Source of the DNA: a virus
Length of the DNA: 64,000 nt
Virus record (IMG/VR): IMGVR_UViG_3300027746_000020
Coordinates: 7,704-71,703 of that record
Direction: 5' to 3' (one strand)
Shown here: piece after piece, positions 2,640 to 61,123 of the stretch
Layout of the letters: every line of letters starts with the position of its first letter
Position numbering within the stretch: the first letter of the stretch is position 1
The notes under the pieces: generated by a model
The model's database searches: none
What the model was told of the DNA's origin: nothing
Seen by the model: the letters and a program-made list of their open reading frames with translations, nothing else
Translations under genes and position numbers: made by a program

Positions 2640-3101
2640 TCAGCCACCAGGCGGCAGGCCGGGAATCAACTGACCACCGCTGACGTACCAAACCCTGGCG
2701 CGTGCATTCACGGCGGAGCGGTCGTAGAGTTTCACCCCCATGGGGCCGACATAGCCGGGGGGTTCGCCTTCGGCACTGAGAGCAGACCACTCCATGCCGG
2801 GGATCAGGGACAGGATATGCGTCCGCTCGAAGATCGTGCCAACTTGGGGAAGGCCAGCGGTCAACAAAGTGGCTACGGCATCGGTCGCGGCGATGTTGAC
2901 GTGGTGGCCGTTGATTGTGGTTTCCCCACGCTGAATGGCGCCGATCTCATCGATATGCACGCCAGAAGCTGGGATCAATCTGTCACCGTCCAGTGTGGCC
3001 AATGGGGTGCCATCGGGGAACACCTGAGACGTAATGCCCTGCCGGAAGCATTCTCGATCAGGGCACCAGCAGAGCACCTCGATGACACTGAACGGCATCA
3101 C
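2640..3101 (-). CDS. hypothetical protein, last gene of structural block
   Basis: 153 aa ORF with 4-bp overlap to the upstream fibre gene. Confidence 0.65.
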   Translation of the reverse strand: MMPFSVIEVLCWCPDRECFRQGITSQVFPDGTPLATLDGDRLIPASGVHIDEIGAIQRGETTINGHHVNIAATDAVATLLTAGLPQVGTIFERTHILSLIPGMEWSALSAEGEPPGYVGPMGVKLYDRSAVNARARVWYVSGGQLIPGLPPGG

Positions 3102-56707: not shown

Positions 56708-57115
56708 TCAATCGAAGGTACGGTGGACAGTAAACGATGCGAAGCCTTCCTGGCTAATAATCGCTACGCGATTGCCAGCAGGATCCCGGAGGATAGATTG
56801 ATTGCCTCCGGTAAACATGTTGCACTTGAATGGTTCGATCACGCAACCTTTGTACTGCGGATGTTTAACAAAGAACGCTTGTTCCGGTGTTAGCTCCGGG
56901 TCAAGCCTGCAAGAGAACACGTTGGGATGCTCGCCGCAGGAGACAACCCGGCTGGAGACGAACTCCAGGAGGGGGTGATAACGGTAGTCGCGAGGGTAGG
57001 GTTCGCCGGAGAAGGTGCCCCATGCCCAGACCACAGCTTCCGCTGCGGAGAAGGCGGATGGGTTGGTTGGGACGCACTCGCCAGTGGCGAGGTTTATTAC
57101 TTTGAGGTTTGTCAT
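56708..57115 (-). CDS. hypothetical protein
   Basis: Operonic ORF. Confidence 0.55.
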   Translation of the reverse strand: MTNLKVINLATGECVPTNPSAFSAAEAVVWAWGTFSGEPYPRDYRYHPLLEFVSSRVVSCGEHPNVFSCRLDPELTPEQAFFVKHPQYKGCVIEPFKCNMFTGGNQSILRDPAGNRVAIISQEGFASFTVHRTFD

Positions 57116-57116
57116 T

Positions 57117-57287
57117 TCAAAGACTCCGCATTAGAGTTAAAGTTTCTTCTGCCTGCTTGGTCAAAAAGCAGTCTGAATGGATTGTGAATAATCTTGTATA
57201 GTCCGAGGGCACACCTCCGAACTTACGAGCCCTTTCAGATGCGGAGGGTATTAGCGCAATGTCTTTACCACAGTGAGAGCATTTCAT
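57117..57287 (-). CDS. small Zn-binding protein (56 aa), below ORF-track cutoff
   Basis: MKCSHCGKDI.L.PSA.ERA.K.G..P.DY..LF..H..C. Confidence 0.6.
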   Translation of the reverse strand: MKCSHCGKDIALIPSASERARKFGGVPSDYTRLFTIHSDCFLTKQAEETLTLMRSL

Positions 57288-57556
57288 GGGAAGAACGAGT
57301 TGTAGGATCGTATTGGTGCTAAGTTCGCGTAATGCTTGACTTTTATGTCAACTTCGACCCCTCTTTCCTTGCAAGCTTTTAGGAAATAACCTGCATCACA
57401 ATCCTCCTCTAAATAAATAGTGGCACCTCTTTGGTAAGAGCAAGAGGATATTTTGCTAAAATCATCTCCCATAATCATGCGAGCTATGTCACGGTTGACA
57501 TGTAGCCAACCATGACCAGGATCCGCAGTAAAGTGGAGCCTTACTGGTTTTTTCAT
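57284..57556 (-). CDS. hypothetical phage protein
   Basis: DPGHGWL, IS..SY, YLEEDCDA..F motifs. Confidence 0.7.
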   Translation of the reverse strand: MKKPVRLHFTADPGHGWLHVNRDIARMIMGDDFSKISSCSYQRGATIYLEEDCDAGYFLKACKERGVEVDIKVKHYANLAPIRSYNSFFP

Positions 57557-57765
57557 TCAGCGTCGGCGGTCTCTTGCGACCGGGAATAGGACGAGATTCC
57601 ACTAAACCTGCCATCGGCGATCATCTCGTCGACGGCAGCTTGTTGTTCTTCCATTGTGTGAAACCATTCCAGAACAGGCCGAGTGCCGTGTTCTGTGGTG
57701 AAGCGTTGTACCCACACGGAGTACCTACAGCCCCGGCCGTGGTTGTTGCGGAATTGGTAGGGCAT
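57553..57765 (-). CDS. hypothetical protein
   Basis: Start MPYQFR. Confidence 0.5.
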   Translation of the reverse strand: MPYQFRNNHGRGCRYSVWVQRFTTEHGTRPVLEWFHTMEEQQAAVDEMIADGRFSGISSYSRSQETADAE

Positions 57766-57769
57766 GGCC

Positions 57770-57991
57770 TCAGGAATAGAGCTGGAGTTCGGCATCTTTG
57801 CCGTAGCGGGCATAGAGATCCGCCGCGTATTCGGCGGAGATCGTGCGGGTCGTCAAGACCCTGCCGGATTGAGTGCGGGCTTCGGAGAACCACCAGCCAG
57901 GGCCGTGCATCTCACTGCGGCGGAAATGGACCCAGGCGGATTGGCTCGGAACGAATACGCTCCAGGCGTAGACACTAGCGAGTTGTGGCAT
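57770..57991 (-). CDS. hypothetical protein
   Basis: Start MPQLAS. Confidence 0.5.
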   Translation of the reverse strand: MPQLASVYAWSVFVPSQSAWVHFRRSEMHGPGWWFSEARTQSGRVLTTRTISAEYAADLYARYGKDAELQLYS

Positions 57992-58211
57992 GACTTTTTC
58001 CTGAACCGGTGAGTCTGAGGCGGCGAGAGAGTTCATCGGCATAAGTGAACGCTTGATCTGCGTAATACCCTTCGCGGACGGGGTTAAACCCACGGAGGTT
58101 TTCCGCCACTTGGCGGCAGTCGCGGATAATGAAGCGGAGCGATCCGAGATCACAAGTCGCCGCATGGCTCCGCCAACGGGCGAAGTCCTGGGGGGTGGCG
58201 TATTCGATCAT
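57975..58211 (-). CDS. hypothetical phage protein
   Basis: L.FII.DC..A......NP..EGYY.DQ..TY..EL.RR. Confidence 0.65.
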   Translation of the reverse strand: MIEYATPQDFARWRSHAATCDLGSLRFIIRDCRQVAENLRGFNPVREGYYADQAFTYADELSRRLRLTGSGKSHATTR

Positions 58212-58525
58212 GGGAGCCGTTCCATCACGAATGTGCCGTACTTGTCGGCTCCTATTGTGGAGAAACAGACGAGTCGGTAGGTAGCTCTTGGGTTGAATCG
58301 TGACAGAGCTTCTAACACTGCGGCTAAATGATTCTCGTGCATAGTCAGAGAATAGTCCTTGGATTCAGAAGCTCGAACCATTCCGCAGTGAGCGATGAAG
58401 GCGGTGTTCCCGTTACTATCAAGGGTTTTGACAGTTCGGACTACATCCAGGATCGGACGCGGCGTGGTAGTACGCCAAACGTCCATCGCGGCCCTGGCCG
58501 GATGAACAGTGATTGTCGCTGACAT
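58208..58525 (-). CDS. hypothetical protein, first ORF after early leader
   Basis: Start MSATIT ~25 nt after leader motif. Confidence 0.55.
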   Translation of the reverse strand: MSATITVHPARAAMDVWRTTTPRPILDVVRTVKTLDSNGNTAFIAHCGMVRASESKDYSLTMHENHLAAVLEALSRFNPRATYRLVCFSTIGADKYGTFVMERLP

Positions 58526-58568
58526 AGGTGTCAGACGGGCAGAGCCCGGTGGTAGTTGGACAGAAAAT

Positions 58569-59248
58569 GCCCCCGAAGGGGCAATACGACATAGGGGGAA
58601 TTGAACCACGGCTTGCGCCGTCCCGTAGGGCCCATACGAAAAGCCCACCCCGTAACAACGGAGTGGGCTAATCGCGCCTTGCCTAGCTTGCGCTAGGTAT
58701 GTCGAAAGATTTTTTCGTTGTTTGACCTCAGGCCAACGAATTGAACCATAATACCTACATCCGTCGCATAACCCTGACGGTAGGGAGCCCTTGCGGGAGT
58801 GGGGCCATGTAGGAGCGCCCCGTATCTAAGCAGCAGGAGGCCCAACCCCCCTGAGAAGTGTGCGTAGGGCCTGACAACCCCCGGTAGCACACCGCATACC
58901 TGCTTGCACTGTGAGCCCGGTCCCTCTGCACGAGGATCCTGCTTGCTAACGACGGGATCTGGCTCTCACCGGCCTCCCCATCTAACGCACACTACTGCCC
59001 CCTCCGGTAATCCGGTGCTACTAGAAACCTCACCCCCATCAGCCGACATGAAAGTCGGGAGGGATTATCGGCCCGTTCGCCGCGCTTGCTCAGGATGATA
59101 CCTGGCCGCCGGGATTTGAACGTGCGCCACTACAGCCCATCAAAGGTCCGTAGCTCACAGCTATAGCTCCAGGGTCGGCCTGGCCCGCCGCGCATGATCG
59201 GATGCGCTATTTATGGTCAGTTCACATAGGCGGTCGGTTCGGGAATGT
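58569..59248 (-). ncRNA. candidate large structured RNA / early leader ending in a tRNA-like domain
   Basis: No credible ORF; three GCAA tetraloops, one UUCG, T-loop-like GTTCAA motifs, several long-range complementary blocks; downstream of three promoters. Confidence 0.6.
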
Positions 59249-59254
59249 GAAAGT

Positions 59255-59283
59255 AGTATGGCATGGATTGGCGGATCCGTCAA
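59255..59283 (-). promoter_or_regulatory. early promoter P3
   Basis: TTGACG-17-CATACT with TGn extension. Confidence 0.75.
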
Positions 59284-59377
59284 GCGGTTCGGCCGGCGCC
59301 GGATCCGGGAACGGATCGCGACTGACGGGAGAGGAGATCCAGGGCGCGACGGCCGCCGGTTCTCTCCCGTTGGATCC

Positions 59378-59407
59378 AACCTACCACGGGATGGGCGGGA
59401 TCGTCAA
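59378..59407 (-). promoter_or_regulatory. early promoter P2
   Basis: TTGACG-18-TAGGTT with TGn extension. Confidence 0.75.
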
Positions 59408-59475
59408 CTGATTGGCCCGTCGGATCCGTGGGGATCGCGCAGCAAGAGGAAACCCGCCCGTGCGCGACGTGCGCG

Positions 59476-59504
59476 AGTCTACCACAGATCGGCGGATCCG
59501 TCAA
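59476..59504 (-). promoter_or_regulatory. early promoter P1
   Basis: TTGACG-17-TAGACT with TGn extension. Confidence 0.8.
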
Positions 59505-59605
59505 GTTTGCTGGAGTCTTATCGAGACTCAGCCTGCGACAGGCACACTGTCTATATGGCACATACAACGTCTACAAAAATGTAAATATATGTAATTTTTT
59601 ATGCT

Positions 59606-60199
59606 ATGCTTTCAGGGCATCTGATTCCTGAACCGGTGACCGAGCAGCTCTGTTTGAACCTGGGTGATGTCCCTGTAACCGTTGGGGGTCGAGTACCCAA
59701 GCCGATCCCGGAGGTAGTGTTGGAGCTATTCAGACTCTCATCTACCTCCCCGTCTGGTCTGGTGTGGGTTCATGATCGACCTCATAAGAGAACAAAAGCC
59801 GGTGACCCAGTTATTGGTAGCTTGATCAACAACAAATATAGATTGGTTCATGTTCCAGGGCATGGGCCTCACTACGCCCATCGAATCGTTTACTTCCTAC
59901 AGACAAAAGAGAACCCAGGTCACATGGTTGTGAGGCATTTAGCCGATGGAGACTTGGTACTAGGTTACCAAAGTGACAACTTACGAGATTCGCAAGGGAT
60001 ACTTAAAAAGCCTAAGGAAGGGTACAAGACTTGTAGAATGTATGAATACAAAGGTGATACCTTCAATCTTACTCGCTTGTGCAAACGGTTAGAGTTGGAC
60101 TACATGCGAATATACCAAATGACACGAAAAGGTAGAGACATTAGAGAAGTATTGGCAGAGCATGGCTTTGCCGATGTGAAGCTACTATTTACTCCCTGA
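59606..60199 (+). CDS. HNH homing endonuclease-like protein
   Basis: SPSGLVW...KAGD..G, Y.AHRIVY.L, VVRH...NL; AT-richer, opposite strand to neighbours. Confidence 0.75.
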   Translation: MLSGHLIPEPVTEQLCLNLGDVPVTVGGRVPKPIPEVVLELFRLSSTSPSGLVWVHDRPHKRTKAGDPVIGSLINNKYRLVHVPGHGPHYAHRIVYFLQTKENPGHMVVRHLADGDLVLGYQSDNLRDSQGILKKPKEGYKTCRMYEYKGDTFNLTRLCKRLELDYMRIYQMTRKGRDIREVLAEHGFADVKLLFTP

Positions 60200-61123
60200 C
60201 ATCTGCAGCCTCTCCATTTCAATCCTTAAATTATCCCTCCCTGACTTCAGCAACTGCCCGATCCTCGACTTGCTCAACTGCATATCGCTCGCTACCTCTT
60301 GCAGCCCCTTCTCTTTGACAACAATCTCCTCCAGCACATACCTCTCCTTCTCCGGCAGGCGCCGCATCGCGGCGGAGATCATCCGATGCTCTGCCGAAGG
60401 CAGGGCCAAGACGGGAGCTTCGCCGGGAGAGAGGGGGTCGAAGGGGGTGAAAGAGGAGGGAGGAGCGAAGCTGAAGCCGTCGTCCTCGGGGGAATCCACC
60501 GCCGGGATCAGCTCAATCAAGTTACTGCCTCCTTCGATGCCGGGGCGGTCGAGGCTTGCGGCCTCCGTCATGGCGTAGACCTGGCCGATCAGAAGCATGC
60601 GCTCAGGGCTGATCTTGGCGTAGGCGGCCAGCTCCTCCAGCGTGGGCTTCCGGCCTGTCCTTGACTGCATCTCCTGGCTGTACCGCTGAACCTTATTCAG
60701 CGTTTCGTAGTGGCCGATGGGAAGGCGGATGGTCCGCCCTTGGTTGTGTAGGGCTCTGGTGATGCCCTGGCGGATCCACCAATAGGCATAAGTGGAGATG
60801 CGGTAGCCGCGAGCCGGGTCGTAAAGCTCCAGGCCGCGAACCAGGCCGATGTTTCCTTCTTGTATAAGGTCGGAGAACTCCAACCCCTTGTGCTGAAACT
60901 TCTTCGCAATGGAGACCACCATTCGTAGGTTGGTGTTCACCATCGCTTTCATGCTGTGGCGCCCCCGCCGCTCTACCGTCTGCTTTGAGGCTGTCTGTTC
61001 ATGATACGAAAGTGGGTGCATCCATTCATGAATGCGGCGGCAGTGGAGAAGTTGAGCTTCCTCGCAAAGGATTGGGTACTTACCCACTTCCTGCATATAG
61101 CTGTGAAGTTCAGCATTAGCCAT
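60185..61123 (-). CDS. RNA polymerase sigma factor, sigma70 RpoD/SigA-like
   Basis: NLRMVVSIAKK, DLIQEGNIGL, YDPARGYRISTYAYWWIRQGITRA, RTIRLP, region 4 HTH. Confidence 0.95.
   Translation of the reverse strand: MANAELHSYMQEVGKYPILCEEAQLLHCRRIHEWMHPLSYHEQTASKQTVERRGRHSMKAMVNTNLRMVVSIAKKFQHKGLEFSDLIQEGNIGLVRGLELYDPARGYRISTYAYWWIRQGITRALHNQGRTIRLPIGHYETLNKVQRYSQEMQSRTGRKPTLEELAAYAKISPERMLLIGQVYAMTEAASLDRPGIEGGSNLIELIPAVDSPEDDGFSFAPPSSFTPFDPLSPGEAPVLALPSAEHRMISAAMRRLPEKERYVLEEIVVKEKGLQEVASDMQLSKSRIGQLLKSGRDNLRIEMERLQMSGSK

Follow-up and report, generated by a model that had tools for sequence, protein, structure and literature searches.

The stretch of viral DNA analysed here (the window) comprises 64,000 nucleotides (nt), bases 7704-71703 of the 71.7-kb IMG/VR record IMGVR_UViG_3300027746_000020, which is rated 100% complete. 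Downstream of its phage sigma-factor gene, directly behind a large non-coding RNA and ahead of a series of small phage genes, the minus strand carries a 118-nt element that resembles the upper half of a transfer RNA (tRNA) but has no decoding arm (Table 1). The element represents a real and new RNA family, supported by covariation.

Thirteen loci carry it: the window, nine other IMG/VR contigs and three metagenome contigs, with eight distinct sequences among them. A large non-coding RNA immediately precedes the element in all 13, and the first ATG comes 35-68 nt after the element. Wherever the flanks are visible (the window and the related loci designated L005-L007, L104, L173 and L223) the order of features is constant: the end of the sigma gene, an AT-rich stretch, three promoter-like sites of the form TTGAC(A/G), a large non-coding stretch, an A-rich and then a U-rich tract, the element, a trailer N-A-U-Y, a GC hairpin and the ATG. 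The first downstream gene varies by lineage and the large RNA is also exchanged, as described below. The module thus keeps its place while both of its neighbours change, a behaviour more in keeping with a boundary signal than with a domain belonging to a single RNA or a regulator acting on a single gene. A riboswitch-like leader of the next gene is ruled out, since that gene differs between lineages.

Table 1. Features of the element, its locus and the surrounding phage genome (window coordinates unless a related locus is named)
Feature	Position	Strand	Basis and remarks
tRNA-like element, 118 nt; four-way junction of acceptor stem, hairpin H1, long arm and T-arm	58587..58704	minus	sequence, minimum free energy (MFE) fold, model R1, covariation
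Acceptor-like stem, 7 bp	58704-58698 with 58593-58587	minus	sequence and covariation; 6/7 pairs covary, all cells pair
Hairpin H1, 6 bp, GCAA loop, at the D-arm position and abutting the acceptor stem	58697-58682	minus	sequence and covariation; 4/6 pairs covary
Single-stranded linker CAAGGC	58681-58676	minus	identical in 7/7 aligned sequences
Long arm at the anticodon-arm position: 4-bp basal helix, 3x3 U-rich internal loop, 11-bp upper helix, tetraloop	58675-58636	minus	fold and covariation
Basal helix of long arm, 4 bp	58675-58672 with 58639-58636	minus	2/4 pairs covary (GA/UC versus AG/CU)
Upper helix of long arm			6/11 pairs covary
T-arm: GGG (58633-58631) and GG (58607-58606) pair with CCCCC (58598-58594); T-loop TTCAATT (58605-58599)	58633-58594	minus	sequence, homology
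T-stem			0/5 pairs covary (invariant; an unvarying pair is uninformative either way)
Insertion in the 5' strand of the T-stem, 23 nt: small CCC-TAC-GGG hairpin and 5-bp GCAA hairpin	58630-58608	minus	homology
3' trailer T-ATT, then GC hairpin GCCCC-TTCG-GGGGC (58582-58569)	58586-58569	minus	sequence; U run after hairpin
Conserved leader, ~20 nt ending GTCTGAC, just before the first open reading frame (ORF)	58531-58560; L002 ~2960-3000; L003 ~2960-3005	minus (window)	
First downstream ORF, 105 aa from ATG at 58525	58208..58525	minus	relatives of 51-58% identity in L002-L004
Conserved core of large non-coding RNA, type A	58757..59175	minus	~95% identical to L005 and L007 (by eye)
Large RNAs in relatives	L006 1036-1720; L173 1431-2088; L223 5930-6416; L002 1930-2420	L006 minus; others plus	
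Three tandem promoter-like sites	59504-59476, 59407-59378, 59283-59255	minus	two by scan, 59407-59378 by eye
HNH-endonuclease ORF, between sigma gene and promoters	59606-60199	plus	PHROG 99, E = 1e-8
Sigma-factor gene	60185-61123		PHROG scan
Integrase-like ORF	1259-2539	minus	PHROG 1, E = 5e-12

Structure of the element and its conservation

The MFE fold of 140 nt is exactly the four-way junction set out in Table 1 (-73.2 kcal/mol, z = -6.48), with none of 200 shuffled sequences as stable, and the folds of L104, L223 and L005, computed independently, give the same junction (z = -6.66, -4.51 and -8.48, respectively). A reading made from the sequence alone (the sequence-only reading) had placed an acceptor-like stem, a GNRA hairpin at the D position, a T-loop, a CCCCC strand and a 3' hairpin on the minus strand at this site; each lies exactly where it had been put, and the sequence likewise bears out that neither an anticodon loop nor a CCA is present. 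The same reading described a 12-bp long arm (58669-58642) followed by a U run. Both exist, but only 11 of the 12 pairs are conserved, and the arm continues past a 3x3 internal loop into a basal helix of 4 bp. Two bases, AU, separate this arm from the T-arm. In relatives the H1 stem varies from 4 to 7 bp and its loops are variable; the T-stem is invariant, the T-loop reads UUCAAnU, and the T-arm matches the motif GGTTCRANYCC. The GG of the linker CAAGGC is a candidate partner for the T-loop. A covariance model built from four sequences (R1) scores 104.4 bits on the minus strand and 22.8 bits on the plus strand, and the long arm contains a U:G pair which, like the GNRA loops, is sensible on the minus strand only, implying that the minus strand is the RNA strand.

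Covariation was assessed in an alignment of seven distinct sequences to a second model, R2, an alignment that is biased towards the model structure and to which the basal helix was added by hand. In this alignment 225 of 226 cells pair, and 18 of the 33 pairs are changed on both sides. None of 500 shuffles reaches any of five measures, and controls in which the partners were slid by 1-3 columns leave 41.5-50.7% paired, with 0-4 pairs changed on both sides. The pairing is thus maintained through compensatory changes that neither the shuffles nor the slid controls match, implying that the structure is under selection. The acceptor stem is constant in length, at 7 bp, and varies freely in sequence. 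Covariation in homologues had been named in advance as a check on the acceptor and T-arm pairing, and the outcome favours the first through its covarying pairs; the T-arm, being invariant, has no covarying pairs but keeps its pairing in all relatives.

For all this likeness the element is not a tRNA, nor is it a member of the tRNA, transfer-messenger RNA (tmRNA) or YrlA families. ARAGORN, expected to be negative, finds no tRNA or tmRNA in the window and none in L002, L005, L006 or L007. The anticodon-arm position is taken by an arm of 4+11 bp with a tetraloop, and the D-arm position by a hairpin of 4-7 bp with a short, variable loop. What does have tRNA dimensions, in all eight distinct sequences (by alignment or model match), is the combination of 7-bp acceptor stem, 5-bp T-stem and UUCRANY-type T-loop. 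Pair 3:70 is A:U, G:C or G:U (G:U in one of seven sequences) and so is not the conserved G:U of a tmRNA, and 118 nt is too short for a tmRNA tag frame. None of the 4227 families of Rfam 15 matches the window at its gathering score; at E <= 10 the sole match in 58000-60400 is a 14-nt hairpin, with 12.9 bits against a gathering score of 45, and at E <= 1 there is no match in six related loci. Searched with RF00005 (gathering score 29 bits; control positive in 14 of 14 genomes), the whole 71.7-kb genome gives no match at E <= 10, and the phage is without tRNA genes of its own.

A T-arm and acceptor stem that resemble the 3' half of a tRNA, in a phage with an integrase-like gene, could in principle be the remains of a decayed tRNA gene, or a tRNA-derived attachment-site core, with no RNA function of its own. 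We consider this extremely improbable. Compensatory changes keep all four helices, the integrase gene is ~14 kb away even on the circularised genome, and the element always occupies the same transcript boundary. Moreover, a 19-mer from the T-arm and acceptor, sought in one genome each of 185,579 species, gave three matches, none of them a tRNA by ARAGORN.

Members of the family

The members were found by several routes. Searching with the protein of the first downstream ORF identified three loci, among them L003 and L004, where the element is 95 nt long and its T-arm uninterrupted. Exact-pattern scans added L006 and the three metagenome contigs. They also gave one chance match, L089, from the metagenome scan, which sits in coding sequence. 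R1 found nothing convincing over 81 sigma-factor loci; over a second set, 75 loci obtained with a sigma-factor alignment, it found L104, whose acceptor stem is quite different. A looser pattern scan returned at least 114 stretches, mostly chance occurrences. All loci fetched from it were screened with R2, and L223, L236, L173, L200 and L270 were added in this way. A tighter pattern matched seven contigs, all of them already-known members. Eight loci (L033, L039, L053, L063, L080, L021, L133 and L092) were not counted, as they score only 13.5-22.3 bits with E of at least 0.03 and match in the T-arm and acceptor only.

The window element stands apart from most of its relatives in that its T-stem is interrupted. 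The GNRA hairpin that the sequence-only reading had noticed there is present, but homology shows that the insertion is 23 nt long and that this 14-nt hairpin is its 3' part. The insertion separates the third G of the T-stem from the fourth; at the same site L173 and L200 carry 53 nt, and by eye the last 14 nt of the 23-nt and 53-nt insertions are similar. The T-stem is an uninterrupted GGGGG/CCCCC in the eight viral and three metagenome loci that lack an insertion. Because the window and L173 have the same acceptor stem, the insertion probably has a single origin, its length having changed since. It is not confined to a single sample: contigs from runs X3 and X7, of other studies and 90-95% like the window, cover the whole element and contain it. 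Among the differences listed, those within the insertion are a C-to-T change at 58625, in the loop of the CCC-TAC-GGG hairpin, and in X7 a 2-base loss at 58615, in the GCAA loop. A scan for further insertion-bearing forms gave no match, with a gap range that excluded the 53-nt form and with the window's own record possibly left out.

The 3' trailer and the question of termination

In all 13 loci the N-A-U-Y trailer is followed, 3-4 nt on, by a GC hairpin of 5-7 bp whose stem sequence differs from locus to locus. A U run after this hairpin is found in one of the 13, the window. Further downstream, the leader ending in GTCTGAC is common to the window and L002-L004, whatever lies upstream of it.

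Both the long arm with its U-rich tail and the 3' hairpin with its U run are called terminator-like by a scan of the window. An intrinsic terminator or attenuator, an option that the sequence-only reading had also raised, would set the ratio of non-coding RNA to messenger RNA (mRNA); relatives that lack the module do have a hairpin and U run at this place, and the depth of RNA contigs is much higher upstream of the element than downstream. We nevertheless judge this explanation to be very unlikely. In the long arm the U-rich tail forms four pairs with the upstream strand, two of them covarying, so that selection appears to act on pairing rather than on a free U tract. The other U run is missing from 12 of the 13 loci. 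A terminator would have no need of a covarying 7-bp outer stem and an invariant, canonical T-arm downstream, and the terminator-like sites of the region, four against 1.9 in shuffles (standard deviation 1.4), are not in excess.

The large non-coding RNAs upstream

The large RNA of the window, here called type A, is far better conserved in its core than in its flanks; between the window and the relatives that share it, the promoter region has diverged much further and the next protein is just 51-52% identical. Several of the few differences within the core are compensatory by eye. Type A has several GNRA loops and matches no Rfam family. At the same place L006, L088, L090, L091 and L173 have a different RNA, type B, to which that of L223 is a weak match, and nhmmer finds no similarity between types A and B beyond a common 5' stretch of ~110 nt. 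Relatives of type B were found by nhmmer on ~14 further contigs. For the RNA of L104 nhmmer found L019 alone, although by eye a short motif is held in common with type A. A third RNA, type C, is present in L002/L008 (one contig), where the tRNA-like element is absent. The large RNAs look like interchangeable cassettes that share a promoter region and the 5' stretch of ~110 nt.

Large RNAs of these kinds also occur in distant phages without the element, as weaker relatives of type A (L009, L010, L023 and L024) or as B-like RNAs (L014, L018, L016, L011/L099, L015 and L103). In the seven element-less contigs whose downstream sequence was read (all but L010 and L103), a hairpin and U run stand before the first gene. 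This suggests that both arrangements solve the problem of ending a non-coding RNA. The distant type-A-like RNAs align poorly in RNAalifold, with 23 of 113 predicted pairs double-changed and many cells broken, and we make no structural claim for them.

Two T-loop-like words, GTTCAAATCC and GGTTCAATTCG, lie at ~59120-59132 and 58731-58741 of the window (both minus), inside and just after the large RNA. L005 and L007 have the first word with a single change, and no acceptor-like stem was seen by eye beside either word.

Evidence that the large RNA is expressed comes from metatranscriptomes in the form of assembled contigs, which are a poor measure of expression and show neither transcript ends nor strand. 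Four contigs of the lake run X2 match the stretch with 0 mismatches, so the phage was present in that sample. One of them, covering 58787-59359 in the large RNA without a mismatch, has a k-mer depth of 124.2; the contigs in the neighbouring genes (57000-57340, 57747-58116 and 58090-58545) have depths of 3, 4.3 and 5. These depths indicate only that the upstream RNA is made and builds up to levels far exceeding those of the neighbouring mRNA. Beyond 59359 the first contig runs into Illumina adapter, which is what a pile of complementary DNA ends at the 5' end of a minus-strand RNA would give. A coverage gap, 58546-58786, includes the element and counts neither for nor against processing.

The module might, alternatively, simply be retained, uncut, as the 3' domain of the large RNA. 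It could then be a handle for a tRNA-binding partner (the ribosome, EF-Tu, a CCA-adding or modification enzyme, or a phage protein) or protect the 3' end in the manner of plant viral tRNA-like ends. In relatives the similarity of the large RNAs extends to the very first base of the element; the invariant linker, long-arm base and internal loop go beyond the needs of a cutting signal; and in the window the hairpin and U run that come 4 nt after the element could end a fused RNA. The large phage RNAs GOLLD and ROOL, moreover, are described in a preprint as often lying near tRNA islands, with tRNAs sometimes carried in the GOLLD linker (bioRxiv 10.1101/2024.12.08.627333). However, two unrelated large RNAs are each followed by this module, in copies ~98% identical by eye, and thus it is integral to neither. 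In many relatives the large RNA occurs on its own, without the module, and given how rarely a U run follows the 3' hairpin, the RNA would usually not end there. Retention as a 3' domain is, in our assessment, unlikely.

Promoters, neighbouring genes and the phage

The promoter-like sites of the window each have TTGACG and, after 17 nt, TAGACT, TAGGTT or CATACT, and each is followed by a strong hairpin. The threefold TTGAC(A/G) arrangement recurs in L006, L104, L173 and L223. Just upstream of the first promoter there are repeated GAGACTCA-like words, often in inverted pairs, in L104 (4070-4140), L173 (1090-1170) and L223 (5580-5640), and the window has a related inverted pair at ~59510-59535 (minus). 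These words may be operator sites. The HNH-endonuclease ORF that intervenes before the sigma gene is missing at this place in L006, L007, L104, L173 and L223, and for that reason is probably a recent insertion. Neither the first downstream ORF nor the neighbouring ORFs have a PHROG match.

PHROG scans identify the virus as a tailed phage, with terminase, portal, protease, major head and tail proteins and genes of nucleotide metabolism, and almost all of its genes are on the minus strand. The integrase-like ORF suggests that it may be temperate. The sequencing runs that contain the window stretch are freshwater and lake samples. Among isolated phages, a megablast search with 57500-60000 found no match, and all tblastn matches of the sigma factor, cyanophages among them, have less than 60% identity. 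The HIP1 octamer, a cyanobacterial signature, occurs once against 1.5 expected, and is uninformative on the host.

A punctuation signal for tRNA-end enzymes?

What role could such a module play? A tRNA is recognised by ribonuclease (RNase) P, by RNase Z and by the CCA-adding enzyme through the stack of its acceptor stem and T-arm, together with the elbow shape. The element would mimic this half, probably with the elbow, and has no anticodon. We put first, at even chances, the reading that it is a punctuation signal for RNase P and RNase Z, similar to the t-elements of plant mitochondria and to mascRNA, a tRNA-like RNA cut from the long non-coding RNA MALAT1; the enzymes and the cut sites are those that we infer from its architecture. 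This reading is favoured by the conservation of the features that tRNA-end enzymes use, by the fixed position at a boundary and by the trailer and hairpin.

A single long minus-strand transcript would run from the three tandem promoters through the large RNA, the module and the GC hairpin into the small phage genes. Cutting by host RNase P at the 5' edge (58705/58704) would give the large RNA a defined 3' end, and a second cut, by host RNase Z or a 3' endonuclease of equivalent function, would fall behind the discriminator, at ~58586. Between them the two cuts would set free a tRNA-like RNA of ~118 nt, and the remaining mRNA would begin with three unpaired bases and a hairpin, which may help to stabilise it. 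In E. coli, 5'-terminal stem-loops with very few unpaired bases reportedly stabilise mRNAs, as Emory, Bouvet and Belasco are said to have found in 1992. Both proposed cuts have parallels elsewhere. The tRNA-like domain of Mycobacterium smegmatis YrlA, with a 7-bp acceptor stem, is described in part of one study as being cut by RNase P RNA in vitro and receiving CCA in vivo (Chen et al. 2014, PMC4201824), and a passage in another places RNase Z cleavage at the discriminator or one base after it (PMC1920247).

Three options had been put forward in the sequence-only reading, and a processing signal for these two enzymes, presumed to act here, is the one that best suits the acceptor stem, T-arm, trailer and position. 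The suggestion that processing would free the early mRNA captures half of the picture; a conserved and abundant large RNA upstream would be freed as well.

Several observations weigh against punctuation. A T-stem insertion, of 23 nt in the window and 53 nt in two relatives, might hinder recognition by RNase P or RNase Z; equally, the natural series of 0, 23 and 53 nt at one site is a ready test of the tolerance of both enzymes. In three of the five lineages bases -1 and -2 can pair with 73 and 74 to give a 9-bp acceptor stem, an unusual length for a substrate of RNase P. A pure cutting signal would need neither the invariant linker, nor the invariant base of the long arm, nor the conserved U-rich internal loop, and these extra conserved parts hint at a further partner or function. 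Many related phages have no module.

Another reading is that the released tRNA-like RNA is itself the product, processing serving only to make it. It would then act as a mimic that titrates or misleads a host factor specific for the acceptor, T-arm or elbow, such as a defence nuclease or a modification or CCA-adding enzyme; a decoy for tRNA-targeting defences was the remaining option of the sequence-only reading. Such a role is compatible with processing. It would be in keeping with the conservation of sequence outside the helices and with the phage's want of tRNA genes, and the expansion of the T-stem site from 0 to 23 and 53 nt could reflect an arms race or tuning. Having no anticodon loop, however, the element cannot mimic the target of an anticodon nuclease, and among the adjoining genes none related to defence or to tRNA was identified, the neighbouring ORFs being those without a PHROG match. 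A mimic as the product itself therefore seems to us distinctly unlikely.

Returning to punctuation, a broader proposal can be built on it, although we advance it only tentatively and think it somewhat less probable than not. Freshwater phages would have a fixed cassette of three promoters, an interchangeable large RNA, the tRNA-like module, the hairpin and an mRNA, by which host tRNA-maturation enzymes produce abundant large phage RNAs of a new class, a bacterial-virus counterpart of the MALAT1/mascRNA system; the released mimic, its T-stem being expandable, would add a second product that itself has a function. Should the cuts be confirmed, the element would, to judge from our literature search, be the first phage example of tRNA-like punctuation that matures a large non-coding RNA. 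The search, of full texts that exclude subscription journals and supplements, turned up no paper in which a large non-coding RNA and an mRNA of a phage are separated by a tRNA-like element. Such punctuation has so far been documented in plant mitochondria and vertebrate nuclei. The upstream RNAs, of ~420-650 nt, are of interest in their own right, being conserved, covarying and outside all Rfam families, alternative cassettes at one locus of which at least one reaches high abundance in a lake metatranscriptome. They would be easier to produce and study if their 3' end were defined. Above all it is these abundant large RNAs ahead of the element that call for an explanation, and with them the conserved internal loop and the site at which the T-stem expands.

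Comparison with known systems

The nearest kinds of RNA differ according to the basis of comparison: by context they are GOLLD and ROOL, by mimicry YrlA, and by mechanism the t-elements of plant mitochondria and MALAT1/mascRNA. GOLLD and ROOL are, according to the preprint, large, structured and abundant phage RNAs beside or linked to tRNA-shaped units, some of them in lake metagenomes (bioRxiv 10.1101/2024.12.08.627333). The upstream RNAs described here match no Rfam family, GOLLD and ROOL included. In addition, the unit linked to them is no real tRNA, and their locus is fixed downstream of a phage sigma-factor gene.

YrlA, as portrayed in part of the study by Chen et al. 2014 (PMC4201824), is likewise a case in which a domain of a non-coding RNA mimics the T-arm, D-arm and acceptor stem of tRNA. 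In the element, by contrast, the outer acceptor stem is open, formed by the two ends, and the order of the helices is not permuted. Again no Rfam family matches, including the Y RNA families as far as Rfam 15 has them. The gene for YrlA adjoins that for Ro60, whereas PF05731 (TROVE) has no match in the phage genome (control positive in two genomes).

GGTTCRANYCC, in turn, is the very motif which, according to a passage in Forner et al. 2007, was used to find t-elements in plant mitochondria (PMC1920247). In what that source says of them, t-elements share with the element a non-canonical cloverleaf, a T-arm with this motif, an acceptor-like stem, the absence of decoding and a position at a boundary in a long transcript (PMC1920247); transcription of the upstream part is seen here in the X2 contig. 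The differences are several. The element is phage-borne, so that a bacterial, RNA-based RNase P would act on it, and its upstream partner is a large non-coding RNA, not an mRNA. A GNRA-type hairpin stands in place of the D arm and a long bipartite arm in place of the anticodon arm, the T-stem has a variable insertion, and cleavage is here a prediction.

The upstream partner brings the comparison to MALAT1, an abundant long non-coding RNA whose mature 3' end is made by an RNase P cut, after which RNase Z frees mascRNA. That system is eukaryotic and nuclear, and where a triple helix protects the 3' end of MALAT1, the phage RNA has an A-rich and then a U-rich tract before the element; behind the element, unlike in the MALAT1 case, there follows a translated mRNA. 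What the two have in common is the arrangement itself, an abundant long non-coding RNA directly before a tRNA-like structure.

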